Notes under the pieces: generated by a model
Database searches by the model: none
Told to the model about the DNA's origin: nothing
What the model saw: only the letters and a program-made list of their open reading frames with translations
Position numbers and translations under genes: made by a program
IMG/VR virus record: IMGVR_UViG_3300045918_000145
Coordinates: 3,872 to 67,871 of that record
DNA from: a virus
Direction: 5' to 3' (one strand)
DNA: 64,000 nucleotides
Shown: piece by piece, positions 1 through 58,668 of the stretch
Position numbering within the stretch: the stretch's first letter is position 1
Layout: every line of letters starts with the position of its first letter

Positions 1-107
1 GGGAAAAGAAGAAACGGGATAAGGGATAACGGCTTCAGTTCAGGGGTGCCGGACTTATCGGCATCCCTCTGGAACGTTATGGTTATGTCGCGAAAGGGAG
101 GAACAAC

Positions 108-380
108 GTGAGCAAACAAAAACTGATAAAGGCACTTCAAGGCGTTGACGAATTTGTAAACTATTTTGCAGAGGAACGCACTCAGACGATAATCACAGAT
201 ATTCGAGCCAGTATCGAAAACAGCACCACTCTGCGCGATCAGTTTGCTATGGCGGCATCTACTGGATTAATAGCAAATAGACAAAACTACATTAGGCATG
301 GAATGGATACGGCTGATATAGCTTTGTTTTCATACCGATTGGCAGATGCTATGCTTAAAGCAAGAGAGGAGAGTGTATGA
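108..380 (+). CDS. Conserved phage hypothetical protein (LRDxFA...AYxxADAMLKAR type)
   Basis: GTG start after GGAGGA RBS; C-terminal LRDQFAM...YRLADAMLKARE pattern is common in small phage proteins. Confidence 0.6.
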   Translation: MSKQKLIKALQGVDEFVNYFAEERTQTIITDIRASIENSTTLRDQFAMAASTGLIANRQNYIRHGMDTADIALFSYRLADAMLKAREESV

Positions 381-886
381 GTGAAAAATTCAAAGAGTTC
401 ATAACTAACTACAAGCCAAGATTTAGAGATGAAAATGGCTATCCTGAATACCGAATAGAAGATATGCAGAAAGCCTTTAATGCTGGAATAGCAGGCCTCG
501 CCAATAAATTCGAGGCAAGTGACGCTGACGAATGGGATAGACACCTAGCAGACCTGAATGAAGAAAACAGGTCGTTGCGTGAACAACTCGCCACCGTGAC
601 AGAGCAACGGGATAACGCTAACAAAGCGTGGGAAGATTTAACGACAGTCACAGAAGAATGTATTGCACAGTGTAACACCATAAAAACGGAGAGGGATGAA
701 TTCAAAGAGTCAATGCTTGAGTGGTTTAGAACTTCTGAAATGTGGCGCACTAGAGAGCGTGATGCTGTTAAAACCATCTCATCCCAAAAGGAAGAGATGG
801 GTAAATACCGAATGTCTATTATTGAACTTGAAGCCGACAACGCCAAGCTGTTAAACGATTGCAAGATGCTGGCTCAATGGATCTAA
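377..886 (+). CDS. Coiled-coil hypothetical protein
   Basis: ATGA overlap with the previous gene; heptad-rich E/K/R sequence. Confidence 0.65.
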   Translation: MSEKFKEFITNYKPRFRDENGYPEYRIEDMQKAFNAGIAGLANKFEASDADEWDRHLADLNEENRSLREQLATVTEQRDNANKAWEDLTTVTEECIAQCNTIKTERDEFKESMLEWFRTSEMWRTRERDAVKTISSQKEEMGKYRMSIIELEADNAKLLNDCKMLAQWI

Positions 887-1034
887 GGCAGACCCGCATT
901 TCAGAATGGTTGTGAATGCCCAACTTGCCAAACAGCGAGGAAATACATTTAAACATTAGCCGTGATCATCAAGCCTGCAGAGCGTTTTAATAGATTGACG
1001 TAAACTGAGGACGGATAATTCAAGGAGTATACGT

Positions 1035-1208
1035 ATGCCAGTTAAACAACTAACTAAAGACGAGATAGCTGCAATACAGCACACTATAACTCCAATACAT
1101 AGAGTACATGATATAAGCCAAAGAAGAACACATATATCATCTGATGCATCTAATTCTAAAATGGCTATTAAGACTAGGAGGGAATCAGTTGATAAATGGA
1201 GAAACTAA
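1035..1208 (+). CDS. Small hypothetical protein (57 aa, MPVKQLTKDEIAAIQHTITPIHRV...)
   Basis: Translated by hand; AAGGAG RBS upstream; not in the ORF track. Confidence 0.55.
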   Translation: MPVKQLTKDEIAAIQHTITPIHRVHDISQRRTHISSDASNSKMAIKTRRESVDKWRN

Positions 1209-1675
1209 TGCGAACAGGTACTGAGTCACCCCACGTAACAAAACTCAAAAGAAAACTTCCTCAATCATCCTACCCAGATAAAATATGCAAATGGTGTGAA
1301 ACCAAACTAGTTAGAACCAGGCAAAGTCTTACCGAGTGGAATCTTATTACTACTTGCGGAAAAGGATGCGCTACTAACTGGCGTTGGTATAAATGTAGTA
1401 AAGCTCAGCATGAAATAAATGAACCACCACTACCAGACAAGTTTTGTATGGCTTGTGATAATTTATTAGTACGTAGAGAGAATGAACATAAGCAAGCTTG
1501 GATTAAACGTAATTACTGCAGCAAAACATGTGCCGCCTGTGGCAAGACTCGTGTAAAAGTTAAAGTACCTATTGCAGAGTTATCTGAGGAACTCCGTGTA
1601 GGAGTTAAAAGATATATTCCAGGTACGCCTGAGTTTGAAGTATTAGCCAAACAATATCTAGCAAGGGGGTTCTAA
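1196..1675 (+). CDS. Protein with two tandem CxxC...CxxxC zinc-ribbon repeats
   Basis: PDKICKWC...CGKGCA and PDKFCMAC...CSKTCA; GGAGGG RBS. Confidence 0.65.
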   Translation: MEKLMRTGTESPHVTKLKRKLPQSSYPDKICKWCETKLVRTRQSLTEWNLITTCGKGCATNWRWYKCSKAQHEINEPPLPDKFCMACDNLLVRRENEHKQAWIKRNYCSKTCAACGKTRVKVKVPIAELSEELRVGVKRYIPGTPEFEVLAKQYLARGF

Positions 1676-1935
1676 TGTACGCTGAAGAAATAATATCTAA
1701 GATTGATGGACCAATATTCAAAAAACAACGAGAGCTATTACATGCTATTATTAATAGCGGAGTATTAGCTAAAGTAGCTGTAGAACCTCTACAAGGGCTT
1801 GAAAATCTACTAGATGAAATAGCTGACTGCGCTCATGACGTGTACGGAAAAGATTGTCTATTTGCAGATCCAGAATTAGAGCGTAAAGCAGAAGAAAATC
1901 AACACGTAGAACGAATACAAACATATAACCACTAA
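1675..1935 (+). CDS. Hypothetical protein
   Basis: TAATG stop/start coupling. Confidence 0.6.
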   Translation: MYAEEIISKIDGPIFKKQRELLHAIINSGVLAKVAVEPLQGLENLLDEIADCAHDVYGKDCLFADPELERKAEENQHVERIQTYNH

Positions 1936-1946
1936 CGGAGGTAGTC

Positions 1947-2243
1947 ATGTTTCAAATTGAAGTTTCAACTGGCGAAGAAGGAAAAGTAACAATGCGTGGT
2001 TGCGCTGATGGCACAGTTGAACTATGTAAATTGGTTGAGAAGAAAATAGTTAATAAAGAGACAGAAGAAGTAACCTATAGCCCTGAGCTAATAGCATATG
2101 CTTACTATGCATCCATTGAACAGGCTTTCAATAAGATTGCACGTATGCGTATAGGGTCATCCAATGCAACCTCTCTCGTAGAGCTTACGGAAGCCATAAA
2201 ACAAATTCGTTTAGACATTAAACAGGAGCTAGGAGTGTTGTAA
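1947..2243 (+). CDS. Hypothetical protein
   Basis: GGAGG RBS; in operon. Confidence 0.6.
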   Translation: MFQIEVSTGEEGKVTMRGCADGTVELCKLVEKKIVNKETEEVTYSPELIAYAYYASIEQAFNKIARMRIGSSNATSLVELTEAIKQIRLDIKQELGVL

Positions 2244-2407
2244 TGCCAGAGAATGAAAACCAAAAATACTATGATTATCTGATTACACTACGTAATACCG
2301 GCAAGATTAATATGATGGCAGCAGTACCTTATCTTGAAAGAGATTTTGGTTTAACAAAAGAAGAAGCCAAGACAATTCTATTTGCTTGGATGAAATTACC
2401 TGATTAA
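2243..2407 (+). CDS. Small hypothetical protein (54 aa, MPENENQKYYDYLITLRNTGKINMMAAVPYL...)
   Basis: Translated by hand; AGGAG RBS and TAATG coupling. Confidence 0.6.
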   Translation: MPENENQKYYDYLITLRNTGKINMMAAVPYLERDFGLTKEEAKTILFAWMKLPD

Positions 2408-2470
2408 CACATACGCCATACGGACATCCCACCCTACGGGTGGGTGTCCTACTGGCGGATAGGAGATGTA

Positions 2471-2695
2471 ATGAAAACGGCAGAAGAAAAAGCAAGTGCA
2501 TTACTTAATAAGTTAAACATACGCGGCAAACTTTATGACAATATTAAACCTGAACTTATTATAGCATTAAAGATTCAAGATCGTGATACTCGACACGCTT
2601 GTGCTGAAGCAGTATTACAAATAAAAGGTGAGTGGTATGATAATCAGATTCGTAATGACGCACATGATGCTTGTATGAATGTACGGGCTGTATAA
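2471..2695 (+). CDS. Hypothetical protein
   Basis: Start refined to the ATG after AGGAG (MKTAEEK...). Confidence 0.55.
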   Translation: MKTAEEKASALLNKLNIRGKLYDNIKPELIIALKIQDRDTRHACAEAVLQIKGEWYDNQIRNDAHDACMNVRAV

Positions 2696-2697
2696 CT

Positions 2698-2723
2698 ATC
2701 TGCCTCCGGCAGATTTTTTGCTT
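2698..2723 (+). promoter_or_regulatory. Hairpin motif GCC-TCC-GGC-N9-GCTT, copy 1 (N4 vRNAP-type C-GGA-G triloop on the template strand)
   Basis: ATCTGCC-TCC-GGCAGAT stem with GCTT at fixed spacing; shared with 10224 and 63764. Confidence 0.55.
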
Positions 2724-2744
2724 ATAAATCCAAGGAGGCTAGAT

Positions 2745-3920
2745 ATGGATGCACCTGTATATAAAGAAGCTGAACAAGCCCTTAAAGTAGCAAAGATTAC
2801 ACTAATGATGCAGAAAAATACTGTCTGTTACACGACTGTAGTTTTCTCATTGAAACAAGAAATAACTGCAGATATTCCAAACATGACTACTGCAGCAACA
2901 GACGGAAAACATCTGTACATTCATCCAGATTTCTTTATGGGTCTGTCTCCAAATGAACGTCTTACGCTATTGGCTCACGAAGCTCTACATGTACTCCTAG
3001 ACCACATGCACCGCAAAGGGGATAGGGATCATAAGCTTTTCAATATAGCCGCTGACTACGTTATCAATGGATCACTGGTGAATGCACAATATGCCTTACC
3101 TAAAGGCGGATTACATGATCATAAATATGACGGTATGACCACCGAGCAAGTATATAAACTTCTTGAAAAGAAAAACAATCAGCAGAAACAAGAATTATTC
3201 GACAAATGTAAAGATGGATCACTGAATGGTAATGACATCACTTACCCAGATCAAGTAGACCCTGGTGAAGCTGTTACTCAGGATGAAGTAACCAAGATCA
3301 TTCTACGAGCTGTGACTCAAGCTAAGGCTATGGGTCAGCCAGCAGGTACGATGCCAGCTGAAATAGAATTGGCACTGCAGCATACCTTAAATCCACCTTT
3401 ACCTTGGCATATCATTCTAAGCCATTACCTCACAGAATTTGCTAAAGAGGACTTCACTTTTAGAAGACCTAATAGACGATTCTTACCTGATTCATATTTG
3501 CCAACAGCTCACTCAGAAGCTGTATGCAATTTAGCTATCTGCGTGGATATCTCATCATCCGTAACTGACCACGAATTCAACGTGTTCATTACTAAGATAG
3601 CTGAGATAAAGAATTCTATGAATCCACAGGAAACTACAGTTGTCTCATTCAATACTCAAATCACTGGTGTACAGAAACTGACGGCAGATGATAATCCATT
3701 GACCAAACTCAAATTCAAAGGTAGGGGTGGTACAGCTATTGCTCCCGTTCTCGAATGGGCAGCAGAAAACAAACCAACAGTAATGATCATATTTACTGAT
3801 GGTGAGTTCACCCAAGTAGAGCCAAAAAACAAAGGCGTACCTATGCTTTGGCTCATTCATGACAACCCTATGTGGAAGACTAAGTGGGGAAGAGTAATTC
3901 ATTACAATATAACTAAATAG
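2745..3920 (+). CDS. Metallopeptidase plus VWA-domain protein (N4 gp25-like, DUF2201 type)
   Basis: TAATDG, HEALH zincin motif, DISSS MIDAS, GRGGT, FTDGE; start refined to the ATG after AGGAGG. Confidence 0.85.
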   Translation: MDAPVYKEAEQALKVAKITLMMQKNTVCYTTVVFSLKQEITADIPNMTTAATDGKHLYIHPDFFMGLSPNERLTLLAHEALHVLLDHMHRKGDRDHKLFNIAADYVINGSLVNAQYALPKGGLHDHKYDGMTTEQVYKLLEKKNNQQKQELFDKCKDGSLNGNDITYPDQVDPGEAVTQDEVTKIILRAVTQAKAMGQPAGTMPAEIELALQHTLNPPLPWHIILSHYLTEFAKEDFTFRRPNRRFLPDSYLPTAHSEAVCNLAICVDISSSVTDHEFNVFITKIAEIKNSMNPQETTVVSFNTQITGVQKLTADDNPLTKLKFKGRGGTAIAPVLEWAAENKPTVMIIFTDGEFTQVEPKNKGVPMLWLIHDNPMWKTKWGRVIHYNITK

Positions 3921-4001
3921 GTGATAGTGAGATTTATGAGGTAGATTAGACTCAAGTGTTCTTGCCATGACCACCTACTAAAAAATTAAACAGGAGAATA
4001 T

Positions 4002-4751
4002 ATGAACCCGATTAAACGCTTAAATGATCTGACACACGCAGAACTTCTGGCAATTGTATATGACTCAGAAGATTACAATAACCTAATTGATCTTGAGTGT
4101 GCTCATAGAGGTATCAGTTTGTTACCACCGTATCCTGGGCTTGAACCTAGCAAGACAGCTGCTAAACCAGATACTCAACTTTTCAAAGTAGGTAACTGGG
4201 GATTTGCAACAGTCGATGTTGCTAATGAAGTTATAAACTTTATGGTTAGCAAAGGTATATGGAAAGAAGAATCCCAATCAGGTGTTAATGTCATGATGCC
4301 TTTGGAAGAAAATAGTTATTACTATCCTGAAATCAAAAAAGCATTAGTTTACACTCAGACTGCGTATGACCAAATAAAAGATGAAGTTGATAAACAAGCC
4401 ACACTCTATAAAGAGTGGAAAGAAAACAATGACGTTTATTCAGCAATATGGAAAGAGCGCAAAGAAGTAATTAAAGACTTCAACTCTCAGCGTGACTACG
4501 CTACTGAACTGAAGAACAACATGATCAAAACTCACAACAGTCTTCAGCGTTACCTAGTACTATCTCAGGGATCTTATCCAATAGCTGTAAGCTTCCTTAA
4601 AGAAGCTGACAAACTTGGAGACTTACGTGTTGATGAAAATGATAGTGTCTTCTACAAATGCACACGTAGACAAGAGCATTTAATTGCAACCAGGGAAACA
4701 CATCAACAGAATTGTATGTCTGACCTGCTAGGTGTTGATTCACTTACGTAG
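4002..4751 (+). CDS. Hypothetical protein
   Basis: Long ORF with AGGAG RBS. Confidence 0.7.
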   Translation: MNPIKRLNDLTHAELLAIVYDSEDYNNLIDLECAHRGISLLPPYPGLEPSKTAAKPDTQLFKVGNWGFATVDVANEVINFMVSKGIWKEESQSGVNVMMPLEENSYYYPEIKKALVYTQTAYDQIKDEVDKQATLYKEWKENNDVYSAIWKERKEVIKDFNSQRDYATELKNNMIKTHNSLQRYLVLSQGSYPIAVSFLKEADKLGDLRVDENDSVFYKCTRRQEHLIATRETHQQNCMSDLLGVDSLT

Positions 4752-4764
4752 GTGAGGAGAAACC

Positions 4765-5097
4765 ATGTCAGAAGAAATAGTAGAAAAACCAAAGCGTAAG
4801 ATATCCAACACTGAGCTGGATAATGTAAAGAACTATCTGTCTATTGAGGTAGCATATAACTTTTCAATCATACTGCCGTATAAAGAAGGAATAGCTTTTC
4901 TAGCTGCTCTTGAAAACGTAGAAAGAGTTAGTATGCCTCACTATGGACAATCACGCATTAAGTTTAATATTGAAAGATTTGAAATTAAAACTGAGATAGT
5001 TTCTCAAGCTTTTTATCGTGAACAAAAGATGAACCACCTATTAGGAGTAACAGATGAGCAATATAATTCTCACACCATGTCAGAAGACTGCTACTGA
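4765..5097 (+). CDS. Hypothetical protein
   Basis: GAGGAG RBS; precedes the helicase. Confidence 0.65.
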   Translation: MSEEIVEKPKRKISNTELDNVKNYLSIEVAYNFSIILPYKEGIAFLAALENVERVSMPHYGQSRIKFNIERFEIKTEIVSQAFYREQKMNHLLGVTDEQYNSHTMSEDCY

Positions 5098-6364
5098 TGC
5101 TTTCTTAGACTTCTTAGTAAGCGATGACATATTCTTTAGTATTACTGGCCCAGCAGGTACAGGCAAATCATTTTTGATTAAACATCTACTGCAGACTTTC
5201 TATTCTAAGTATTCTGCTTATTGTTTACTATTACAGAAAGAAGTTAAACGCTTTGATATTAGAATAACTGCTACTACTAACAAAGCAGTCAACGTAGTAG
5301 AAGACTTCTTAGGTAGTGTACATAACGATCACGCTAATGTTGAAGTAAGCACGATCTATTCATTGCTTGGATTAAAGATTCAGAACAACTATAAAACTGG
5401 TAAACAAGAACTGGTCTTCAATAACAAAAGCGAAGGCTATTTCAATTCATTATTTGGGCCAGAGATTCCTCTGATCTTTATTGATGAGTCATCCTTTATC
5501 AGTGAAGAATTACAAACCATAATTGAAAATACAGCTCCTAAAGATAGGGGCGTAAAAATTGTCTATATTGGAGATAAGCATCAGCTAGCTCCGGTAGGAC
5601 AAAAGTTTTCAATAATGGATTCTCTGAACTGTAGCAAAGTAGAATTGACAGAGATAGTTCGTAATGCAGGTCATATTCTTAAAACTGGTACTCAGTTTAG
5701 GCAGACAGTTGAAACAGGTATATTCAAACCAATCAATTACAATGGAATTGATGTAGTCCACATGGATGGCCCTACTTTCCAACAGGCTGTTGAAAACTCT
5801 TTCACTGATCCAAATTGGTATCCAAATAAAAGTAAAGTACTGGCTTGGACTAACAACAGAGTACAAGAATATAACCAACATATTCGTACAGCTATGAATA
5901 AGCCAAAGCTATTCACTACAGGAGAATACGCTGTAACTAATGAGTATATCAAAAGTAACAAGTACACCTGTGGAGTAGACTCAGAAGTCCTACTTACAAA
6001 AGTTCACTATGAACCAATCCATTTATTCAACGTAAAAGGATTCATGGTAGAAATAGATAATGAATTTGTTGGATTCATGCCAGAGAACTTTCAAGATGCT
6101 AAAGCAGCTATGAAAGAGTTCGCTGCAGATAAGGAATGGAAGAAGTACTTTGAGATTAAAGAGACTTGGCTTGATCTTAGAGCTGTATATTCAAGCTCTA
6201 TTCATAAAGCTCAGGGATCTACTTATGAAACAGTATTCCTTGATCTATCTGATATTGGTACTAACTGGAATGCTAATGATGTAGCTAGACTTCTTTACGT
6301 TGGCATAACTCGTGCTTCTAAACAAGTAGTCTGTTATGGCTATCTACCTGATAGATACACCTAA
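5054..6364 (+). CDS. SF1 DNA helicase, Dda/RecD-like (N4 gp37-like)
   Basis: Walker A GPAGTGKS, IDESS, IGDKHQLAPV, HKAQGSTY, YVGITRA. Confidence 0.92.
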   Translation: MSNIILTPCQKTATDAFLDFLVSDDIFFSITGPAGTGKSFLIKHLLQTFYSKYSAYCLLLQKEVKRFDIRITATTNKAVNVVEDFLGSVHNDHANVEVSTIYSLLGLKIQNNYKTGKQELVFNNKSEGYFNSLFGPEIPLIFIDESSFISEELQTIIENTAPKDRGVKIVYIGDKHQLAPVGQKFSIMDSLNCSKVELTEIVRNAGHILKTGTQFRQTVETGIFKPINYNGIDVVHMDGPTFQQAVENSFTDPNWYPNKSKVLAWTNNRVQEYNQHIRTAMNKPKLFTTGEYAVTNEYIKSNKYTCGVDSEVLLTKVHYEPIHLFNVKGFMVEIDNEFVGFMPENFQDAKAAMKEFAADKEWKKYFEIKETWLDLRAVYSSSIHKAQGSTYETVFLDLSDIGTNWNANDVARLLYVGITRASKQVVCYGYLPDRYT

Positions 6365-6373
6365 AGGATATTT

Positions 6374-6934
6374 ATGACAGACACTCAAGTACTATACCAG
6401 CTACAAGAAGACGCTGTTCAGGTACTTATGGATGAGACATTTGAACACGTAGAACGTGAAATGAATGAACAGTATCAAGCATTAGGTAAAAGAAATGCTC
6501 AACTAAACTATGCAACAGAAACCAAGTTCATGTACGCTGGTACGCTCTATCCGACAGGTGGAGCACGATCTACAGCCTATGGCAAACGTATTCCTATTCT
6601 ACATTATTCATTATTGAATGAGCTAGAAACCATCAACAAATCTCTGACTCAAGATGACTTTCATTATATCAAAAACTTCTTTATAGCAGCAGTAAGCCAA
6701 TCACATAATGCCATTGTACTAGATGCTCTACTACCTGTAGTACTAGTAAATGCCTTAAAAGCTAAGCTTTCATGGACTCGATTTAAAGTACTTGACACAG
6801 GTGTCTATGGAGGATTACAACAAGAACCCATTTCTGTCACTAGACAAAATATCCAGAACCTGCAAGAGCACTACAAGTCAGTCATAGCAAGAGTTCAATG
6901 TATGCTTATGGATAAGCTGTTACTACAGAAATAG
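6374..6934 (+). CDS. N4 gp38-like conserved protein
   Basis: Synteny between the helicase and DNA polymerase. Confidence 0.5.
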   Translation: MTDTQVLYQLQEDAVQVLMDETFEHVEREMNEQYQALGKRNAQLNYATETKFMYAGTLYPTGGARSTAYGKRIPILHYSLLNELETINKSLTQDDFHYIKNFFIAAVSQSHNAIVLDALLPVVLVNALKAKLSWTRFKVLDTGVYGGLQQEPISVTRQNIQNLQEHYKSVIARVQCMLMDKLLLQK

Positions 6935-6944
6935 AAAGGAAGCT

Positions 6945-9491
6945 ATGCGACACGCAACTTATGGTAATGACCCTTCTTCCGCATCAATCGCAATACTCGT
7001 AAAAGAAACTTCCTTCAATAGTGACGAAATCAAAGAACACTACATAGACGCTCTTGGTGCTAACCCAGGAGCGTTTATTGCCTACAGCCTATGGTATGAT
7101 GACAATGGTAAGTGTCCTGCAGCTCTAGCGAAGGATTATCTTCAGACTCTGCTATTATCTCTAAAGCAACTTGACATATCTACAATTATTGTCACAGATG
7201 CTGCGTATTTTAAATACATTACAGAATCTAAGCAATCTGCATTATCTCTAATCGGACATCACACTATCTCTAAAATAGATGGTTACGACTCCGTATTTGA
7301 CGTGTGGTACGCTCCAAACTTTCATGCAGCAAAGTATAACCCCAAGACAGAGAAAGACCTCACAGAGGCTCTCAGATGCTTTAAACAGCATTTGACAGGT
7401 AATTACGAGAAACCAGGAAGTAATGTCATCCATTTCGCAGCGTATCCTGAATCTATTTCTGCAATAACTGCATCTCTTGAGCTTTTACTTAAATACCCAG
7501 AGCTGACAGTTGACATTGAAACCAAAGGGCTTGAGTTCTGGAAATGTGGAGTAGCAACCATCGCGTTCGCGTGGGATAAACATAACTTCATATCCATACC
7601 AGTTGATCGTGGTGAGTATCCTTGTGCTGTAAAGCGTCTACTCAGGATATTCTTTGAGAACTACGAGGGTAAACTGATAGGACAGAATCTTGGATTTGAC
7701 TTTAAGGTACTTACCTTTGAATTATGGATGGATAATCTACAAGACATAAAAGGTATGATTAATGGAATCCAGATATTAACTAGAAATTTTGAGGATACAA
7801 AACTCATAGCTTATTTGGCTATTAACAATGCTGTAGAGAACATTCTTAAGTTAAAAGTGCTCTCTGCTCCCTATATGGGTAATTATGCTGAAGAGGATAT
7901 TGAGGATACTACTCTTATACCTTTAGATAAACTGCTTGAGTATAATGGTAAGGATTGTTTAGCTACTTGGTTTGTGTACGATCTTTACTATCCTAAGATG
8001 GTAGCTGATGATCAAGAGACTCTTTATAAAGAGTTATTTAAACCATCAGTGATTACCTTATTACAAACCGAGCTGGTTGGTATGCCTATTTTACCTGATA
8101 AAGTAGCTTATGCCAAGGATAAATTGAGCAAACTACAAGCTGAGTATATGGACTATCTAAACAACTCAAAGCTTATTCAAGAGTTTCAGTTAGAGGTACA
8201 GGCTAAAGCTGTAATAGAATTCACAGCTAAGGCTAAAAAGAAAGTCTTTGATATTGACGATCCAAGAGTTCAACGATTGGTGTTCAATCCAAATAGTGAT
8301 CAGCAAGTAGGAAACTTACTGTATAACTATCTTGGCTTACCAGTACTTAGTTACACAGATGCTAAACAACCGTCTACTGATGGTAAGACTTTAAAGAAGC
8401 TTCTAAACCATACAACTAATCCAGAGTATCTCAAGATCATTGAGATGCTTAGAGGTTTAACTCAGGTATCTAAGATTCTTACTTCATTCATACCAGCCTT
8501 TGAAAATGCTGTTCAGATGCCTGATGGAAGCTGGAGACTCTATGGTAACTTCAATCTTGGAGGAACTGTTTCAGCTAGGCTATCCAGCTCTAAACCAAAC
8601 CTTCAAAATTTGCCCGCCAACTCCATCTATGGAAAACTGATTAAGGAGTGTTTCGGATGTCTCGATGGCTGGCTATTTGGAGGAGCTGACTTTAACTCTC
8701 TTGAGGACATGGTTTCAGCTCTGACTACCAGAGATACCAACAAGATGAAATGTTATCTTGATGGCTTCGATGGTCATTCACTACGAGCAGCTAGTTATTT
8801 TAAAGATCAAATGCCTGACATTACAGATACTGTTGAATCCATTAATAGTATCGCTGAGAAGTATCCTCATCTAAGACAAGCTTCCAAAGCTCCTACTTTT
8901 CTGCTTACCTATCAGGGTACATTTCACGGTTTGATGAATAATCTTGGTTTGGATCAAGCTTCAGCATTGATCATAGAAGCAAACTACCACGAGCTTTATA
9001 AAGAAGCTGATAAGTGGGTAGATGATAGACTGCAACAGGCATGTGTAGATGGATATGTTACAGGAGCATTTGGCTTACGTTTAAGGACACCTTTATTGAA
9101 ACTCAATGGTAAGGGTAAGCTCAACTACAAAGCAGCTCAGGAAGGACGTACAGCAGGTAACATGCTTGGTCAATCCTATGGTCAGTTAAACTCCAGAGCA
9201 GCAAATGAATTCAGAGAAAGAGTATGGGCTTCAGAGTATAAATACGACATTATTCTTTGTGCTCAAATTCATGATGCAATTTATCTTATCTGGAGAAACA
9301 CAGTAGGTATAACAAAATGGGTTAATGATAATCTCATTGACTGCATGAAGTGGTGTGAACTTGTAGAGCTTCAACACCCAACAGTTAAACTAGGTGCAGC
9401 TCTTGATATATTCTATCCTGACTGGTCTATCAAGACTACTCTCAGCAACAATGATTCCATTCAAAACATCTATGAAACATGTAAGAAATAA
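6945..9491 (+). CDS. Family A DNA polymerase with 3'-5' exonuclease (N4 gp39-like)
   Basis: Exo DIETKG; motif A GADFNSLED, motif B RQASKAPTFLLTYQG, motif C QIHDAIY. Confidence 0.95.
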   Translation: MRHATYGNDPSSASIAILVKETSFNSDEIKEHYIDALGANPGAFIAYSLWYDDNGKCPAALAKDYLQTLLLSLKQLDISTIIVTDAAYFKYITESKQSALSLIGHHTISKIDGYDSVFDVWYAPNFHAAKYNPKTEKDLTEALRCFKQHLTGNYEKPGSNVIHFAAYPESISAITASLELLLKYPELTVDIETKGLEFWKCGVATIAFAWDKHNFISIPVDRGEYPCAVKRLLRIFFENYEGKLIGQNLGFDFKVLTFELWMDNLQDIKGMINGIQILTRNFEDTKLIAYLAINNAVENILKLKVLSAPYMGNYAEEDIEDTTLIPLDKLLEYNGKDCLATWFVYDLYYPKMVADDQETLYKELFKPSVITLLQTELVGMPILPDKVAYAKDKLSKLQAEYMDYLNNSKLIQEFQLEVQAKAVIEFTAKAKKKVFDIDDPRVQRLVFNPNSDQQVGNLLYNYLGLPVLSYTDAKQPSTDGKTLKKLLNHTTNPEYLKIIEMLRGLTQVSKILTSFIPAFENAVQMPDGSWRLYGNFNLGGTVSARLSSSKPNLQNLPANSIYGKLIKECFGCLDGWLFGGADFNSLEDMVSALTTRDTNKMKCYLDGFDGHSLRAASYFKDQMPDITDTVESINSIAEKYPHLRQASKAPTFLLTYQGTFHGLMNNLGLDQASALIIEANYHELYKEADKWVDDRLQQACVDGYVTGAFGLRLRTPLLKLNGKGKLNYKAAQEGRTAGNMLGQSYGQLNSRAANEFRERVWASEYKYDIILCAQIHDAIYLIWRNTVGITKWVNDNLIDCMKWCELVELQHPTVKLGAALDIFYPDWSIKTTLSNNDSIQNIYETCKK

Positions 9492-9499
9492 GAGGTTAT

Positions 9500-9676
9500 A
9501 TGTCAATCACTGAAGAGACGCGTTTACAGATGTTGTATCTATTAGCTCCAGTGGCATTAGATCCACAATGCATGGATAAGTTGTTAGATGAGATGGAAAA
9601 GGCAAACGGTGTAAGACCCACACCAGAAGAAATTATGAAGCATATTAATTTACTGCGATCAGTAAGAGGAGTCTAA
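9500..9676 (+). CDS. Small hypothetical protein (58 aa)
   Basis: Translated by hand; GAGG RBS; stop abuts the next start. Confidence 0.55.
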   Translation: MSITEETRLQMLYLLAPVALDPQCMDKLLDEMEKANGVRPTPEEIMKHINLLRSVRGV

Positions 9677-10222
9677 ATGCATTACTATATTGGTATTGAT
9701 AATGGAGTTACAGGATCTATTTGTATTTTAAATGAGAATGGGTCTTGTCTACACTATGCACCAACACCTGTTAAACAAACTCTCAATTACACAAAAGAGA
9801 AAGAGTTCATAATGCGTGTAGTTGTAAAAGATATGGCCGAATTACTTATGCCATATAGAGAAGGAACAGTTGTACTGGAACGCCCTATGCTTAATCCATT
9901 ACGGTGGACTGCTTCTGTATCAGCTATACGTTGTGATGAAGCTACCAGAGGAGTAATTGAAGCTCTTGGTATGAAGTTAATCTATGTAGATTCTAAAGAG
10001 TGGCAATCTGAAATGCTACCTAATAGGAAAGCTATTTCAAGACTTCCTAAAGGATCTACAAATGAAGCCAAGAAAGCTCAGGCTAAACTGACTGCAGCCT
10101 ATGCAGCAGAGACTAAGAAACTGTCGCTCATGTGTGCTCAACGACTATTTCCTAATCTTGAATTTAAGAAAGATGGAGATGCTGCTCTTATAGCTGAGTG
10201 GGTTAGAAAGAATAAATTATAA
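9677..10222 (+). CDS. RuvC-like Holliday junction resolvase
   Basis: IGIDNGVTG, VLERP and DGDAALIA acidic motifs of the RNase H fold. Confidence 0.75.
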   Translation: MHYYIGIDNGVTGSICILNENGSCLHYAPTPVKQTLNYTKEKEFIMRVVVKDMAELLMPYREGTVVLERPMLNPLRWTASVSAIRCDEATRGVIEALGMKLIYVDSKEWQSEMLPNRKAISRLPKGSTNEAKKAQAKLTAAYAAETKKLSLMCAQRLFPNLEFKKDGDAALIAEWVRKNKL

Positions 10223-10223
10223 G

Positions 10224-10247
10224 CAGCCTCCGGCTGTTCATTTGCTT
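10224..10247 (+). promoter_or_regulatory. Hairpin motif GCC-TCC-GGC-N9-GCTT, copy 2
   Basis: CAGCC-TCC-GGCTG stem; GCTT at the same spacing. Confidence 0.55.
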
Positions 10248-10269
10248 GTTCAATTTAAAGGAGAATAAG

Positions 10270-10443
10270 ATGAGTGCATTAACACAAAAGCTTAAAAAAG
10301 AAATATGTGATGTATTAAAAGAGTTTACTTTAGACTCTGGTGAATGTGTATCTGAAATAATGATTGGCCCTTTTACCGATGATGGTAATTATCAAATACG
10401 AGTTACTCTTGAATCAGGTGAGGTAATTACAGATGAAACATAG
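10270..10443 (+). CDS. Hypothetical protein
   Basis: ATG after AAGGAG. Confidence 0.55.
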   Translation: MSALTQKLKKEICDVLKEFTLDSGECVSEIMIGPFTDDGNYQIRVTLESGEVITDET

Positions 10444-10699
10444 TGCAGCATTGAAAGTAAAACCAGGTGAGCTATTAGCTCTTAACCTAAACAAAGATGG
10501 AATACTTTGGGAAGTGGTCAGTATTATGTTTCCTACATTTACTGTTCAGGAAGCTGGTACAATCTATCGTCCTAAAGCTATTGGTTACTGGTACTTTTCT
10601 AAACCAACTAAAGCTCAGTTTAATGCATACAATAAACGAAGGGAGAAATACTATGGGAACAGTGACTCTGAAACCAGTACAGCCAGTACCAGTTTCTGA
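10433..10699 (+). CDS. Hypothetical protein
   Basis: GAGG RBS; overlaps its neighbours. Confidence 0.55.
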   Translation: MKHSAALKVKPGELLALNLNKDGILWEVVSIMFPTFTVQEAGTIYRPKAIGYWYFSKPTKAQFNAYNKRREKYYGNSDSETSTASTSF

Positions 10700-10943
10700 A
10701 GAAGTAATTATGATAGGAACTGCACGACTAGGTACAGTTAAAACTATAACTGATCAATCTAGTTTTAAATTTCATGTAATTCTTGAATCCAAAAACATGT
10801 GGAGTATCTATCAAGGATTTGGACAAACAGTTGATGAAGCAATGCGAGATGCTATTGAGAAAAATAGAGATCGTAGGTTTCAAGAAATAAATGAACTTGA
10901 AACACTTGAAAATATCATCTGGGGGGATCATGAAATTAACTAA
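10653..10943 (+). CDS. Hypothetical protein
   Basis: Start refined to the ATG after GGGAG (MGTVTLKP...). Confidence 0.5.
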   Translation: MGTVTLKPVQPVPVSEEVIMIGTARLGTVKTITDQSSFKFHVILESKNMWSIYQGFGQTVDEAMRDAIEKNRDRRFQEINELETLENIIWGDHEIN

Positions 10944-11922
10944 TAGCAAGAACATAGGTCTGTCTATGGCTGTCTTTCTAGCGCATGACGACTATGACTA
11001 TGACCCAAGACCAAACGTACTCTCAGCGACCACTCTACAGAAGTCTGTAAGACAGATCATATTGGCTAAACGTATAGAGTCAACTGACATGTCAATGGAT
11101 ATCAGCTCAATGGTAGCCTCTTCTTTTGGTACAGCTGTTCACGATGCTGTTGAGAAAGCATGGTCAGAGAAACGCTATATGAAGGCCATGAAGAAGCTTG
11201 GATACTCTGCAGATACCATCGCTAGAATTAAAGTTAATCCTATGCCAGAGGAACTAACAGAAGACACTATTGCTATCTATGTTGAACAACGTAGTGAGCG
11301 TAAGTTAGGTGCTTGGATTATTGTAGGTAAGTTTGACTTTGTAGGTGACGGTCAACTTGAAGACCATAAAAGCACTGGTGTCTATACCTACATGAAGAAA
11401 ACCAACAATGAAAAGTATCGTCAGCAAGGATCTGTTTATCGCTGGCTTAATCCAAAGATAATTACTCGTGATCAGATGCTTATCAATTTCATCTTTACAG
11501 ACTTCTCAAAACTGAAAGCTGCTCTTGAAAAAGATAAAGGTTACCCACCAGAGCGTCTTATGGATATGCCAGTAGCTTTGATGTCATTGAGTGAAACTGA
11601 AAAATGGATTAATGATAAACTGAAACTAATTGATACAAATTTCAATGTAGCTGAACCAGATCTTCCATTATGTAATCAGCAGGAACTCTGGCAGGATGAC
11701 ACAGTTTACGCTTACTACAAAAGCGGAGATTCAGATAAGTCTACCAAGAATTTTGATAACTTTTCTGAAGCTCAGATGCGTTTAAACAAAGATGGCGGAT
11801 CTGGTATTATCAAGATTCGCAAAGGTGCAGTTAAATACTGTGCTTGGTGTGTTGCTGCATCTATATGTTCACAGTGTCAGCAGCTTATTGCTGATGGTTC
11901 ATTTAATCCTGAAGGAGCTTAA
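10930..11922 (+). CDS. PD-(D/E)XK exonuclease (N4 gp42-like)
   Basis: FGTAVHDAVE, GKFDF, EDHKST and a C-terminal C..C...C cluster; start refined. Confidence 0.85.
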   Translation: MKLTNSKNIGLSMAVFLAHDDYDYDPRPNVLSATTLQKSVRQIILAKRIESTDMSMDISSMVASSFGTAVHDAVEKAWSEKRYMKAMKKLGYSADTIARIKVNPMPEELTEDTIAIYVEQRSERKLGAWIIVGKFDFVGDGQLEDHKSTGVYTYMKKTNNEKYRQQGSVYRWLNPKIITRDQMLINFIFTDFSKLKAALEKDKGYPPERLMDMPVALMSLSETEKWINDKLKLIDTNFNVAEPDLPLCNQQELWQDDTVYAYYKSGDSDKSTKNFDNFSEAQMRLNKDGGSGIIKIRKGAVKYCAWCVAASICSQCQQLIADGSFNPEGA

Positions 11923-11924
11923 CT

Positions 11925-12116
11925 ATGAAACTAAAAACGATTAAACCAATGGAGACTCGTAAAGACTCTATTAGTTTTGTAATCGAATTTGAACCAAGAC
12001 TTAAACGTAATGTTGGTATTGGTTATGTTGATGAGGGTGCAGCATCACTAGATGATTTTAAAAAGCATCCAATAGTTGAACGATCTTGGCTAGACATAAA
12101 GGAGTTTTCAAAATGA
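11925..12116 (+). CDS. Hypothetical protein
   Basis: AGGAG RBS. Confidence 0.5.
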   Translation: MKLKTIKPMETRKDSISFVIEFEPRLKRNVGIGYVDEGAASLDDFKKHPIVERSWLDIKEFSK

Positions 12117-14293
12117 AAGATCTATCCACACTGACATTCCATCCAACCTCAGAGAAACTGGTAGAGTTATTGTGTGAAAAGACACAGAACTCAAATCCTC
12201 AGTTCTTTCGTATGATGGTTTGCTATTACATCTGTAAAATGGCATCCAGCATGAGAGTAACCATTAGTACAAAAGACCGTGGCGAAATACCAATTAACTT
12301 CTACGGCATCAATCTGGGTGTTAGTGGTATTGGTAAAGGTCATAGTACTAACATTCTTGAAGATCAAGTAATTGATAAATTCAAGGGTACTTTTTTTGAT
12401 GCAACACTTGTCAAAGTAGCGGAGGCTAACCTTAAAGTACTATCTGTTAAACGGATGAATATTCATAACAATAATCCAAACCTAACAACTCCTATGATGG
12501 ATTTTGATGAAGCACATGCACAGGTTACTAAAGAGTATGAATCTCTTGGTAAGCTTGCTTTCTCATTTGACTCAGGAACTACCGCTGCTGTAAAGCAGAT
12601 GAGGCATAAATTGCTCATGTCCGGTATTGGAGCTATGAATCTTGAGATGGATGAAATAGGTTCTAACCTTCTTGGTAATGTGGATGTTCTAGGAACATTC
12701 CTTGAGCTGTTTGATGTTGGTAAAGTCAAACAGAAGTTAACCAAGAATACAAAAGAATCTGTACGATCAGAAGAGATTGACGGTAAGACTCCTACCAATC
12801 TTATGCTCTTTGGTACTCCAGCTAAACTACTTGATGGAGCTAAGACAGAAGATGAGTTCTGGTCATTCATATCTACTGGCTACGGTAGACGTTGCTTTTT
12901 TGGCTACACTAAAGGCAGTGGTAGAAACAAAAGTCTTACTGCCAATGATGTTTATGACAAACTGACTAGTGTACAATCAGACCAACTGATGACATCGTTG
13001 TCTAATCAGTTTGCTGCTCTTGCTGCAGAAGTTAACTACAACAAGAAGCTACAGGTGTCTAAAGATGTAAGTCTACTGTTGATCAGCTACAAACTTCATT
13101 GTGAAGACCAGGCGGATAGACTAGGTGAACATGAAGAGATGCTTAAAGCTGAACTGTCACATCGTTATTTCAAAGCTCTGAAGCTTGCAGGAGGATTCGC
13201 TTTTGTAGATGGTCATGGTGAGATTACTGAAGACAACATGTATCATGCAATAGCTATGGCTGAAGAGTCTGGTAAAGCATTTAAGCTAATGCTCAATCAA
13301 GATAAGAACTATGTCAAGCTTGCAAAGTATATTGCCAGCATAGGCAGAGAAGTCACTCATGTTGACCTTACAGAGAGCTTATCCTTCTACAAAGGAGCAC
13401 TTTCTCAGAAGTCAGATCTTATGCAACTAGCTGTAGCTTGGGGCTATAAGAATTCAGTTATTATCAAACGTAAGATTGACAACAACATTGAATTCATAAC
13501 TGGTGAGAAACTGACTGAAACCAATCTTGAAGAAATGTATCTGTCACACAGTAAAGACATCGCCGTTGACTATGACAATGTACTTGCTCCATTTGATAGA
13601 CTTGTTGATCTTGTTAAAATGAAAGATCATCACTGGTGCAGTCATCATTCTACAAATGGCAGACGTTCAGAAGAGAATCTTGCACCTGGATTTAATCTGG
13701 TAGTATTGGATGTGGACGGTGGAACTAAACTCGAAACAGTTAAAATTCTACTCAAGGATTTTAAATACATAATCCATACAACCAAACGTCACACCCCGCA
13801 TGACCACAGATTCAGAGTAATCATGCCTACCAACTACATTCTGAAATTGAATGACACGGACTTTAAAGAGTTCATGCGTAACATCTACGAATGGCTTCCA
13901 TTTGACTCTGATACTGAAACTGGTCAACGTGCTCGTAAGTGGGCTACCACAGATGGTTGTGAAGTGTTTACCAATGATGGTGAATCACTTGATGCTTTAC
14001 TATTTATTCCTCGTACCAGCAAGAATGATGAGCGTCAGAAGATCATCCTCAACCACCAGGATATGACAAGCATGGAGCGTTGGTTTGTTACTAAGATGGA
14101 AACAGGTAACAGAAACAATCAGCTGATAAAATATGCTTTGATGCTGGTTGATGCCGGTTATCAATATGTTGACATTGAACTGAAAGTAAACCAGTTAAAT
14201 CAGAAACTCGAATCACCACTGTCTCCTGAAGAACTAAAGACAACTGTATTTCAAACCAGTTATAAAAAATACATTCAACAGGGAGGACAATAA
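12113..14293 (+). CDS. DNA primase (N4 gp43-like) with C-terminal PriCT-like domain
   Basis: SGIGKG, EMDEIGSNL, VVLDVDGG, HTTKRH, GNRNNQL; synteny. Confidence 0.88.
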   Translation: MKDLSTLTFHPTSEKLVELLCEKTQNSNPQFFRMMVCYYICKMASSMRVTISTKDRGEIPINFYGINLGVSGIGKGHSTNILEDQVIDKFKGTFFDATLVKVAEANLKVLSVKRMNIHNNNPNLTTPMMDFDEAHAQVTKEYESLGKLAFSFDSGTTAAVKQMRHKLLMSGIGAMNLEMDEIGSNLLGNVDVLGTFLELFDVGKVKQKLTKNTKESVRSEEIDGKTPTNLMLFGTPAKLLDGAKTEDEFWSFISTGYGRRCFFGYTKGSGRNKSLTANDVYDKLTSVQSDQLMTSLSNQFAALAAEVNYNKKLQVSKDVSLLLISYKLHCEDQADRLGEHEEMLKAELSHRYFKALKLAGGFAFVDGHGEITEDNMYHAIAMAEESGKAFKLMLNQDKNYVKLAKYIASIGREVTHVDLTESLSFYKGALSQKSDLMQLAVAWGYKNSVIIKRKIDNNIEFITGEKLTETNLEEMYLSHSKDIAVDYDNVLAPFDRLVDLVKMKDHHWCSHHSTNGRRSEENLAPGFNLVVLDVDGGTKLETVKILLKDFKYIIHTTKRHTPHDHRFRVIMPTNYILKLNDTDFKEFMRNIYEWLPFDSDTETGQRARKWATTDGCEVFTNDGESLDALLFIPRTSKNDERQKIILNHQDMTSMERWFVTKMETGNRNNQLIKYALMLVDAGYQYVDIELKVNQLNQKLESPLSPEELKTTVFQTSYKKYIQQGGQ

Positions 14294-14688
14294 TGATTTG
14301 GAATGATTACGAGATAAAAGTAAAAGCTATTCCTAAAGAACAGTTTAATTCTAAAGAATACGTAACAGAACGCATTGGTGTCTTCGTTGGTACGCAAGTT
14401 CAAATAAACGTTGAACGAGCACGACTTGTTATAGAAGCCAAAGAAAAAGAATTGGATATCAGGACACGGTACTATGCACAATATAATGCTATCATGGCTG
14501 AATACAAAACTAAACTCTATGGTGACTATAACCTATCAGTAGAGATACTTGATATGGCTTACGCTCATGCATACGAAAGAGGCCATTCATCAGGATACTC
14601 TGAAATAGAAGGCATCTTTTATGAAGTGATAAGTGATTACGCAAAAGCATACGATCTTGGTTTAAAGGACGGTAGAAATGGTAAATAA
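14293..14688 (+). CDS. Hypothetical protein
   Basis: GGAGG RBS; AYERGHSSG motif. Confidence 0.65.
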   Translation: MIWNDYEIKVKAIPKEQFNSKEYVTERIGVFVGTQVQINVERARLVIEAKEKELDIRTRYYAQYNAIMAEYKTKLYGDYNLSVEILDMAYAHAYERGHSSGYSEIEGIFYEVISDYAKAYDLGLKDGRNGK

Positions 14689-15397
14689 CAATCTCGTACT
14701 CATATGTGGAACAAGCGGAGGAGGCAAATCAGCCTCACTCCGTAACATTCCTGATCCTGCAGGAGTGATCTATCTTAACTGCGAATCTGGTAAACTTCTG
14801 CCATTCGCGTCTAAGTTTAAGTCACTCACTATCACTGATCCTATGGATGTATATCAGGCTTTCACAGAAGCTGAAAGTATGCCAGCCATACACACTATAG
14901 TAGTTGACAGTGTGACATTCCTCATGGACATGTTTGAGAGCGTCTATGTAATTGGCGCATCTGACACTATGAAGATGTGGGGAGAGTATCAACAGTTCTT
15001 TAAGAATCTGATGCAACAGCACGTAGCTAAATCGACTAAGAATGTCATCTTCACAGCCCATACTCTTAACGTACTCAATGAAAATGAAATGGTTGTTGAG
15101 TGTAAAGTTCCTATCAAAGGAGCACTTAAGAACAACGGATTGGAAGCCTATTTCTCAACAGTCGTTACGGCTCGTAAGATAAGCATTAAAGGACTGAAGG
15201 ACTATCAGAATGAAAATCTGATTATTACTCCTGAAGAAGAGATGCTTGGTTTCAAATATGTATATCAAACCAAGATAACCAAGGAAACCATTAACCATAG
15301 GATTAGATCTTCTATGGGTCTATGGTCTACTGCTGAAACATTCATTGATAATGATGCTCAGATTCTTTTGAATAGGTTACATAAGTATCATTCCTGA
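14678..15397 (+). CDS. AAA ATPase, Sak4-like (N4 gp44-like)
   Basis: GTSGGGKS Walker A, IVVDSVTF Walker B. Confidence 0.88.
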   Translation: MVNNNLVLICGTSGGGKSASLRNIPDPAGVIYLNCESGKLLPFASKFKSLTITDPMDVYQAFTEAESMPAIHTIVVDSVTFLMDMFESVYVIGASDTMKMWGEYQQFFKNLMQQHVAKSTKNVIFTAHTLNVLNENEMVVECKVPIKGALKNNGLEAYFSTVVTARKISIKGLKDYQNENLIITPEEEMLGFKYVYQTKITKETINHRIRSSMGLWSTAETFIDNDAQILLNRLHKYHS

Positions 15398-15409
15398 TTA
15401 CACGAACAT

Positions 15410-16270
15410 CCTTGGGGCGATAACAGTCTCCCCTGAAGATATGAGATAAGGCGGCATCCATTGATACCAATAATAATGGTAGGCCATAGAAGGACTCTGG
15501 CGAAGGAAAGTCGGTAACTAAACCTGACAGCCTGGAAATAGACAGGAACGCGGTGATAGCACTAGAGAAAGAGATTGGGAGCGAAAGGCAGTGAGACTCT
15601 GCGGCTCTAGTGCTTTCATGCATTATTACAGTTTGGGTTACACCCCAAGAACGGAGATTGCCGCGTAAGCAAAGCGTCGTTGGTATAAGGTGTAACCCAA
15701 TTCAATTTGGATAAAGTGATTGAGGGCATAAGATAGAGGCGGATTCTATTAACTTAGACGGCTGAACAATGAGCGACCTCAGCTTTATCCAAATAAATAT
15801 GGCAGGGTTAGACAATGCTGAATGATTTCTCCACTCTTAATATAGATTTACGGTGTGTATCTATGAGAGAAATGTATGATACATCATTCAGTCCCGATAG
15901 GCGGGAAAACGTCAGGTGAGAGAGAAACTCATCGAGTACGGTAGAATCCGTACCTAGTGGCAATGAGACACTGCTACACAGGGATCAATACTCCAGAAGA
16001 AATGCGAGCCTATCAGCCATTATAAAAAAGTAACTCAACTCTTCCCCCTCTCGGAACACATGGGAACGCCTGACAGACTGAAGAGGTCAATGGCAGGACG
16101 TGGACTAGGCACGAAGCATGTGGGTTGACCGTGAAACCGATAAGGATACCTAGGAAGCACACGGATGTAGGCGGAGCCTGACCGAAATCTGACGCAACAA
16201 TAAGTAACAGTACACTTAGGGGCTAAAGAATCTGTGACCTAGCTGGTATCCAGAGTGAATCCAGCAACTA
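15410..16270 (+). ncRNA. Large structured ncRNA or array of ncRNA domains, family unassigned
   Basis: Several 10-12 bp closing stems, nested helices and multiple T-loop-like hairpins; no credible ORF on the + strand; strand inferred from the flanking operon. Confidence 0.65.
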
Positions 16271-16287
16271 AACTAAAAGGAGTATAA

Positions 16288-16614
16288 ATGATTGAAGCGT
16301 ACAAAAAAGCAATACTGAACTATGCGAACTTCCAAGGAGTTGCGACACGTTCAGAGTACTGGCTATTCCTGTTGTGCAATGTGCTTATTGGATTCTTTAT
16401 TGGATTCATTGGAGCATTAATATCACCTAATAGTGTTGCACCTATGACAACACTATATCAATTACTTGTTCTTATGCCATCCATATCTTTGACTGTCAGG
16501 CGTACGCATGATTCAAATCATTCTGGCTGGTGGGCATTACTACCAATTGTAAATTTTATCTTTATGTTTTTTCCCTCAGTACCAAGCCGTTACAGAATAA
16601 TTGAAGTTAACTAA
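16288..16614 (+). CDS. DUF805-family inner-membrane protein
   Basis: YANFQGVATRSEYW, SLTVRRTHDSNHSGWW; three hydrophobic segments. Confidence 0.85.
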   Translation: MIEAYKKAILNYANFQGVATRSEYWLFLLCNVLIGFFIGFIGALISPNSVAPMTTLYQLLVLMPSISLTVRRTHDSNHSGWWALLPIVNFIFMFFPSVPSRYRIIEVN

Positions 16615-16659
16615 GCAGTAAACATCGTCCGAGATGTTAAACCACAAAGGAGAAACAAA

Positions 16660-17409: not shown

Positions 17410-17473
17410 TCTGCTAGCTTTATTGGCTCGCATACTTGCTGGCTTGACTAGATTCATTTTATATCCAACTGCA

Positions 17474-17504
17474 GTAGAGCTACGTTGCATAAACGTAGCT
17501 CTAC
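17474..17504. repeat. Perfect 13-bp inverted repeat in the intergenic spacer after ssb
   Basis: GTAGAGCTACGTT-gcata-AACGTAGCTCTAC. Confidence 0.85.
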
Positions 17505-17575
17505 TCGTTGGCAGCAAACCAAAATTACAATTGCCATACACGCCAATGTACCAACCACCTAAAAGGAGAAGATTT

Positions 17576-17899
17576 ATGCAAGTTACTTTGAATCAGGCTG
17601 AAATTGAAAAAGCACTTATTAACTATGTAGGACAACAGGGAATCAGTATTACTGGCAAGAACGTGGATGTAACGCTCGTAGCGGGTCGTTCGCCTAATGG
17701 TATGACTGCTAGTATTAATATCTCTAACGATGGTGTCACAGAGGCTAATATCGTTACTACTCGTACCTTTGGATCTGCTACTAATAGCAACAATATTAAT
17801 TGCACTTCCGTAGTTGAAGCATCTGATGTTGCGGGTGAGCCAACACCTGTAGAAGAAGATGAAGCAGTTACTGCTCAGCGTCCTCTGTTTGGTGCATAA
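17576..17899 (+). CDS. N4 gp46-like protein
   Basis: MQVTLNQAEIEKAL... N-terminus, acidic tail, LF end; start refined after AAGGAG. Confidence 0.65.
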   Translation: MQVTLNQAEIEKALINYVGQQGISITGKNVDVTLVAGRSPNGMTASINISNDGVTEANIVTTRTFGSATNSNNINCTSVVEASDVAGEPTPVEEDEAVTAQRPLFGA

Positions 17900-18439: not shown

Positions 18440-18455
18440 TTTGAGTAATAAAAGT

Positions 18456-18481: not shown

Positions 18482-18483
18482 GT

Positions 18484-58624: not shown

Positions 58625-58668
58625 TTGGTAGCTTGTCTACCTATATCTATATCTCTGGAGGTTTCACC

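Follow-up and report, generated by a model that had tools for sequence, protein, structure and literature searches.

Genome context

The source is a 71,755-bp IMG/VR virus record, with bases 3872-67871 making up the window, that is, the whole 64,000-nt stretch analyzed here, in whose coordinates all positions below are given; GC content is 39%. The ends of the record overlap, which indicates that the assembly is circularly permuted. The phage is N4-like, uncultured and metagenome-derived. Early and middle genes lie on the plus strand, from about 58.2 kb across the record ends to 18.4 kb, and the minus strand carries the late genes, between 57.9 and 18.5 kb. The early region encodes the small subunit of RNA polymerase II (RNAPII; N4 gp15-like, 61226-61984, plus strand; phrog_2166, 8.5e-36) and its large subunit, RNAPII-L (N4 gp16-like, 62503-63705, plus strand; phrog_2051, 8.5e-119; PF00940). 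An intrinsic-type terminator with a 10-bp stem and a T6 tract (63709-63748, plus strand) closes this early operon. On the minus strand, a 2549-aa protein (18484-26133; PF21867) comprises the polymerase and C-terminal part of the virion RNA polymerase (vRNAP). RNAPII-L is only about 40% identical to its counterparts in the nearest cultured phages, the early region had no megablast match among GenBank phages, and scanning the window for Rfam families and tRNAs returned nothing.

Two further stretches are noted here in their own right. Between the Sak4 and SSB genes lie 890 nt (15398-16287) of purine-rich DNA of about 45% GC, which contain only short reading frames (the longest of 101 codons, on the minus strand), gave no Rfam match, and include an 88-nt core that is 78% identical to the relative G002 (see below). 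In addition, an element made up of TAACGGCTT-AGTT-AG, a GC hairpin and GAACGTT-TGGTTATG is present in two copies, one at about positions 25-95 and the other about 640 nt before the first base of the window; the surroundings are GC-richer and moron-like and also have sigma-70-like promoters.

Three TCC-loop hairpins ahead of middle operons

The sequence GCCTCCGGC occurs at 2702-2710, 10226-10234 and 63768-63776, in each case on the plus strand and between genes. Three copies in the window compare with 0.04 expected, and none of 100 shuffles reached three. An earlier note on this DNA had reported three intergenic copies of GCC-TCC-GGC-N9-GCTT with variable outer stems and had proposed a genome-wide motif scan. 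That scan bears the report out, as the whole 71,755-bp record holds three forward and no reverse copies of GCCTCCGGC, and the full pattern GCCTCCGGC-N9-GCTT returns these sites again, each without a mismatch. Across IMG/VR, GCCTCCGGC-N6-TT-N-GCTT gave 51 single matches on unrelated contigs, which were taken as chance, and the motif thus led to no close relative there.

Site 1 (2698-2723, plus strand) consists of ATCTGCC-TCC-GGCAGAT (2698-2714) and a T6 tract, with a predicted start G at 2720. Site 2 (10224-10247, plus strand) consists of CAGCC-TCC-GGCTG (10224-10236), with a predicted start G at 10244, and site 3 (63764-63789, plus strand) of AAACGCC-TCC-GGCGTTT (63764-63780), with a predicted start G at 63786. 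The stems are thus 7, 5 and 7 bp long, and their outer parts vary from site to site (ATCT/AGAT, CA/TG and AAAC/GTTT) while complementarity is kept. Folded as single-stranded DNA, the template strand gives -6.2, -4.4 and -6.4 kcal/mol at sites 1, 2 and 3, respectively, with the loop reading GGA, in the form C-GGA-G, at all three. Every site also has a T at +8 and a G at +14, counted from the loop center.

As the earlier note described, the sites follow a stop codon or a terminator: site 1 begins 3 nt past a TAA and site 2 begins 1 nt past a TAA, and site 3 is preceded by the hairpin-plus-T-run terminator at 63709-63748. Sites 1 and 2 lie 25-26 nt ahead of the start codons at 2745 and 10270, and site 3 is followed by a 187-nt leader that runs to the ATG at 63973. 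Site 1 heads an operon that includes a VWA/DUF2201 (N4 gp25-like) gene, a Dda-like helicase gene and the DNA polymerase gene; site 2 heads several small ORFs followed by exonuclease, primase and Sak4 genes; and site 3 heads the first genes past the RNAPII genes. Sigma-70 promoters were considered at sites 1 and 2 and rejected, as none were called there in a scan of window positions 1-18,500. A search of the intergenic early region (57.9-61.2 kb) for GC-containing T-N-C triloop hairpins found none, and there is no TCC-hairpin site within 57.9-63.7 kb. All three sites are downstream of the RNAPII genes and, as had been claimed, outside the early block.

Several neighboring elements are recorded separately. 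A GC-rich TAC-loop hairpin, CCCACCC-TAC-GGGTGGG (2428-2444), lies 270 nt upstream of site 1 and has neither a T at +8 nor a G at +14; the middle regions of KpCHEMY26 also hold TAC-loop hairpins. The near-palindrome TCTTGTA-N7-TACAAGA occurs twice, at 57959-57979 in the divergent region between late and early genes and at 63789-63809 directly after site 3, which would put it at +17 of the transcript predicted there; an operator and a 5' RNA hairpin are possible roles, and a similar CTTGTA…TACAGG follows the first hairpin of G002. The leader after site 3 carries GCTGACACCTA in tandem (63836-63846 and 63882-63892), with CATAACAC (63870-63877) preceding the second copy only. Also in this leader, GACACCTAAC is kept at the same position in G002 and G003, and it resembles GTGACAC, the core of the SP6 promoter.

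Conservation of the hairpins in related phages

A protein search returned many metagenomic relatives of RNAPII-L at 60-74% identity, and IMG/VR loci and complete genomes were retrieved from an alignment of 20 such relatives. The relatives compared here are five complete IMG/VR genomes and one partial contig, with RNAPII-L 41-68% identical to that of the present genome, which is G000 in the comparisons (G002, 68%; G003, 64%, with a GC content of 55%; G005, 45%; G006, 44%; G001, 41%).

The TCC-loop hairpin class is present in every relative fetched, in phage LUZ7 and in four other genera of the Schitoviridae, with C-TCC-G hairpins past RNAPII-L in Litunavirus, Littlefixvirus, Efbeekayvirus and Pylasvirus; no TCC hairpin was found after gp16 in N4. 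In G000, G002, G003, G005 and G006 the early/middle-gene strand carries intergenic xCC-TCC-GGx hairpins, and G001 has a variant with another closing pair, GCGGCA-TCC-TGCCGC. In eight of eight genomes the first TCC hairpin follows RNAPII-L by 16-814 nt, and a search upstream of RNAPII-L in the relatives found none. The bias towards this loop is also clear from the six genomes taken together: of the 37 GC-containing triloop hairpins that lie between genes on the early/middle strand, 14 have a TCC loop, and none in the opposite orientation does, compared with 10 of 402 triloop hairpins in coding DNA.

When 22 sites from eight genomes are aligned on the loop center, all have T at +8 and 21 have a purine at +14 (G in 15), neither of which was used in selecting the sites. 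Stem positions covary, with 96.7% of cells paired, all six pairs varying on both sides and the fifth pair taking four pair types; no shuffle or slid register approaches this level of pairing, although the pairing statistics are partly circular, since the sites came from a hairpin search; that circularity does not extend to pairs five and six, to the T at +8 or to the purine at +14.

The genomic slots are conserved as well. The slot downstream of RNAPII-L, that of site 3, is occupied in G000-G006 and, in LUZ7, by the promoter PE7. In G000, G002, G003, G005 and G006, a separate intrinsic terminator lies 12-60 nt upstream of this hairpin. The slot of site 1, directly before the VWA/DUF2201 gene, is occupied in G002, and that of site 2, ahead of the exonuclease/primase operon, in G002, G003, G006 and LUZ7 (PM2). 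The operons served are those of replication genes, namely helicase, DNA polymerase, exonuclease, primase and Sak4.

Promoters, terminators or operators

LUZ7 provides the experimental counterpart, as its transcription starts have been mapped by ONT-cappable-seq (Putzeys et al., 2022; PMC9163698). In that phage, early hairpin promoters have G starts 13-14 nt from the hairpin center, and in middle promoters, attributed to RNAPII, a GC-rich hairpin precedes the G start by about 15 nt, with stems of at least 6 bp in middle and at least 4 bp in early promoters (PMC9163698). Our own scan of LUZ7 located intergenic TCC-loop hairpins centered at 8245, 9529, 35259 and 39361. The published starts of PE7 (8259), PE8 (9543), PM2 (35273) and PM3 (39375), of which that of PM2 was confirmed by primer extension (Table S2, bioRxiv 10.1101/2022.03.18.484859), equal these independently located centers plus exactly 14 nt. 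PE7 and PE8 were classed as early and PM2 and PM3 as middle promoters (bioRxiv 10.1101/2022.03.18.484859).

From these sequence likenesses, sites 1-3 are very probably promoters, with starts predicted at 2720, 10244 and 63786, and the hairpins are most likely a further example of the known signal type mapped in LUZ7. Starts at +14 have been shown in LUZ7; for the present phage, we infer both promoter activity and the identity of the polymerase.

The appearance of sites 1 and 2 could also suggest that the hairpins, rather than being promoters, are mainly terminators, or elements for RNA-level stability or processing where operons end. A T6 tract follows the 7-bp hairpin of site 1, both sites were called by a terminator consensus scan, and both abut stop codons; moreover, the PM3 hairpin of LUZ7 coincides with a terminator, T41 at 39374, of 54-68% efficiency (Table S3, bioRxiv 10.1101/2022.03.18.484859). 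The T run is weak after site 2 (TTCATTT), however, and site 3 and many of the relatives' sites have none. In five genomes a canonical terminator already precedes the hairpin in the RNAPII-L slot, which argues that the hairpin is not there for termination. Terminators also have no fixed loop, +8 T or +14 purine that persists among phages whose GC content ranges from 37 to 55%, and in LUZ7 the reads enriched for 5' triphosphates begin at +14. We therefore consider a mainly terminating or processing role quite unlikely. The coincidence of T41 and PM3 instead shows that one element can both end and start transcripts, a dual role in keeping with the terminator-like appearance of sites 1 and 2. By the same token, 3' ends at such hairpins do not rule out promoters, since PM3 has a 3' end at 39374 and a start at 39375.

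A conserved 9-nt core, a fixed spacing to GCTT and a position 25-26 nt before two start codons would likewise be expected of an operator or translational operator bound by a phage DNA- or RNA-binding regulator and unrelated to initiation. Site 3 is 187 nt from its gene, however, the elements do not overlap ribosome-binding sites, and the LUZ7 counterparts are mapped transcription starts, which together make a purely regulatory role very improbable.

The earlier note had seen in the hairpins a possible sign of a rewired cascade. The same TCC/+14 hairpins occupy the same slots, behind the RNAPII genes and ahead of replication operons, in LUZ7 and in every relative examined. The arrangement is thus normal for Schitoviridae other than N4, and only by comparison with N4 itself can the cascade be called rewired.

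A split virion polymerase and a linear early motif

What is unusual in this clade is its virion polymerase, which is split, together with a linear early motif in place of hairpins. The vRNAPs of G000, G002 and G003 are 2549-2577 aa long and align to residues 1235-3586 of the 3604-aa vRNAP of G006, so that the 2549-aa protein is without the N-terminal domain of about 1000 aa found in N4 gp50. A separate 1160-aa protein (29058-32540, minus strand) is homologous to the N-terminal domain of unsplit vRNAPs, matching residues 393-795 of the G006 vRNAP at 8e-11, and is 33% identical to a 1296-aa protein of G002, which likewise corresponds to the N-terminal part. The two pieces are separated by a tail-fiber cassette. 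No counterpart of the separate N-terminal protein surfaced in G003. The split, which the earlier note had assumed in speaking of a split vRNAP, is real.

The early block holds five plus-strand copies of a linear motif, AAACCYT-N4-(C)ATA(G)-N3-GG, between 58196 and 60541, starting at 58196, 58610, 58962, 59245 and 60518 (as spans, 58196-58214, 58607-58633, 58959-58985, 59242-59268 and 60515-60541). It is often preceded by GCACACA with a spacer of N3-4, and each copy stands ahead of an early gene and is followed by a variable hairpin. The motif is conserved only in G002 and G003, with four copies each, and only in their early regions, so that the genomes with the linear motif (G000, G002 and G003) are the genomes with a split vRNAP. 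The possibility that it hides a hairpin (AAA-ACC-TTT) was rejected, as the copies in G003 are unable to pair.

C runs lie near the physical left end in N4 (C9 at 32-40) and LUZ7 (C7 at 29-35), and G001-G006 have runs of C6-C9 upstream of their early genes. By comparison, a C7 run followed by GG (58138-58144, plus strand) would mark the left genome end of the present phage. The first early promoter slot is 40-60 nt downstream of the C run; here, 58 nt downstream, the linear motif at 58196 occupies the slot of N4 P1 and LUZ7 PE1. We propose the linear motif as a candidate set of early (virion polymerase) promoters of non-hairpin type, which suggests that the split vRNAP may read a promoter that is not a hairpin.

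Which polymerase probably reads the hairpins

Taken together, these comparisons lead us to regard it as fairly probable that the three elements are the TCC-loop, +14 hairpin promoters of non-N4 Schitoviridae, with RNAPII as their most likely reader. In such a scheme, negative supercoiling or local melting would allow the template strand to fold into a C-GGA-G mini-hairpin, to which a phage RNA polymerase of the single-subunit type would bind, starting RNA at the G 14 nt downstream, and each transcript would then enter a middle operon. The reader would most likely be the heterodimeric RNAPII (61226-61984 and 62503-63705), probably together with a cofactor that binds single-stranded DNA, and sites 1 and 2 would probably also halt part of the transcripts arriving from upstream.

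The earlier note had favored the virion polymerase as the driver of middle genes and had named RNAP II only in brackets; the first of these does not hold up well, and the bracketed alternative is the better reading. RNAPII is the more likely reader for several reasons. The TCC/+14 class is kept wherever RNAPII is conserved, and early promoter types differ, being TAC/TTC hairpins in LUZ7 and Litunavirus, GCAC-TYC-GTGC in G006 and the linear motif in the present phage. That the early block has a motif of its own argues in the same direction. The hairpins here lie only downstream of the RNAPII genes and so cannot be what first expresses RNAPII.

Some evidence nevertheless points to the injected virion polymerase, whose 2549-aa catalytic piece would drive the middle operons during DNA entry. 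The template GGA loop and its closing C-G pair are those of N4 P2 and P3, which are vRNAP promoters, and since vRNAP-read promoters share the loop, the loop alone cannot tell the polymerase. PE7 and PE8 of LUZ7, which belong to the same class, share the slot of site 3 and were detected in the 5-min early sample, are classed as early, the stage assigned to vRNAP, and this weakens the assignment to RNAPII. Further, genome entry in N4 needs transcription (PMC3715699), so that a distal vRNAP promoter could fire late.

Against this, the DNA upstream of the RNAPII genes contains no hairpin of this kind here, in G002 or in G003, and vRNAP would thus lack a promoter for the genes expressed first, unless it also read the unrelated linear early motif. 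In phages with hairpin early promoters, the early class differs from TCC/+14 in loop or stem sequence, and in LUZ7 in spacing as well, as its strong early promoters combine a TTC or TAC loop with a start at +12 or +13 (bioRxiv 10.1101/2022.03.18.484859). PE7 and PE8, at 197 and 1111 RPM, compare with 3,852-46,374 RPM for PE1, PE3, PE4 and PE5 (bioRxiv 10.1101/2022.03.18.484859), so that the main early promoters exceed them 20- to 200-fold. Finally, the N4 register would place a C, and not the required G, at template position -8. Reading of the hairpins by the virion polymerase thus seems unlikely. The loop-binding residues of N4 (W129, K114, R119, D901 and R904) could not be aligned across eight vRNAP polymerase domains, even with hairpin-using LUZ7, and their absence here is uninformative.

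It is tempting to speculate that in the split-vRNAP clade (G000, G002 and G003) the virion polymerase has exchanged hairpins for the linear motif of about 20 nt (GCACACA…AAACCYT…ATA…GG), with TCC/+14 hairpins kept solely behind the RNAPII genes, a possibility that we put forward tentatively. If true, such a division in nature would identify RNAPII as the reader of the TCC/+14 class, PE7 and PE8 of LUZ7 included, and would also show that a vRNAP is able to recognize a non-hairpin promoter.

As to the cofactor, phmmer, blastp and PDB sequence and profile searches for a Drc/gp2 homolog found none. A 106-aa early protein (60577-60897), whose gene is preceded by the last copy of the linear motif, has a basic, disordered N-terminus and is 60-82% identical among relatives, which exceeds the conservation of RNAPII-L. 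Its hhalign alignment with LUZ7 Drc centers on A-x-A-[FY]-[VL]-N-[WF] and is weak, with a pairwise E of 0.003 and a probability of only 10%; its AlphaFold model (mean pLDDT 66) had no Foldseek match, and the ESM Atlas gave nothing. We mention this protein as a candidate polymerase cofactor.

The present phage adds an uncultured freshwater clade to the phages with TCC-loop hairpin promoters and, by comparison across distant genera, defines what they have in common, namely that position +8 is always T, that +14 holds a purine and that the genomic slots are fixed. Experimental data for the class come only from LUZ7, where its members straddle the early and middle stages. With hairpins only behind the RNAPII genes and a linear early motif, this clade offers a clean system for the question of the polymerase. 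The hairpins may also be used as markers of operon starts when annotating N4-like genomes from metagenomes.

Comparison with N4 and LUZ7

The N4 vRNAP promoters P1 (at 96), P2 (565) and P3 (4554) have the loops TTC, TCC and TCC, respectively, and a start G 11 nt from the loop center. The present sites resemble them in forming a template-strand hairpin in which a stem of 5-7 bp carries a loop of 3 nt whose central template base is G, in having a GC-rich core, variable inverted-repeat flanks and a T-rich stretch before the G start, and, for P2 and P3, in an identical TCC/GGA loop. Three differences stand out. The conserved G lies 14 nt from the loop center, beyond the 11 nt of P1-P3, which agrees with the wider spacing that the earlier note had remarked upon. 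The second stem pair is C-G here and G-C in N4, which puts a C rather than a G at template position -8. And the N4 promoters lie upstream of gp1, gp2 and gp15 near the left end, whereas the present sites are about 5.7, 16 and 24 kb from it, compared with 96, 565 and 4554 nt. The RNAPII middle promoters of N4, in turn, are short AT-rich linear sequences spanning -7 to +2, not GC hairpins, and depend on gp2 and gp1 (PMC4496689); they share with the present sites a genomic role, heading replication-gene operons in the left half of the genome.

The likeness to LUZ7 is closer. [quoted passage not shown] The present sites differ in their fixed inner stem, GCC/GGC, and shared GCTT start region, and the phage differs in having neither TAC/TTC-loop early hairpins alongside nor a recognizable Drc. 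The starts are mapped in LUZ7, whereas the present phage is known from its genome alone, and it is through this correspondence in loop, spacing and slot that the three hairpins can most likely be placed among the TCC-loop hairpin promoters of the Schitoviridae outside N4.
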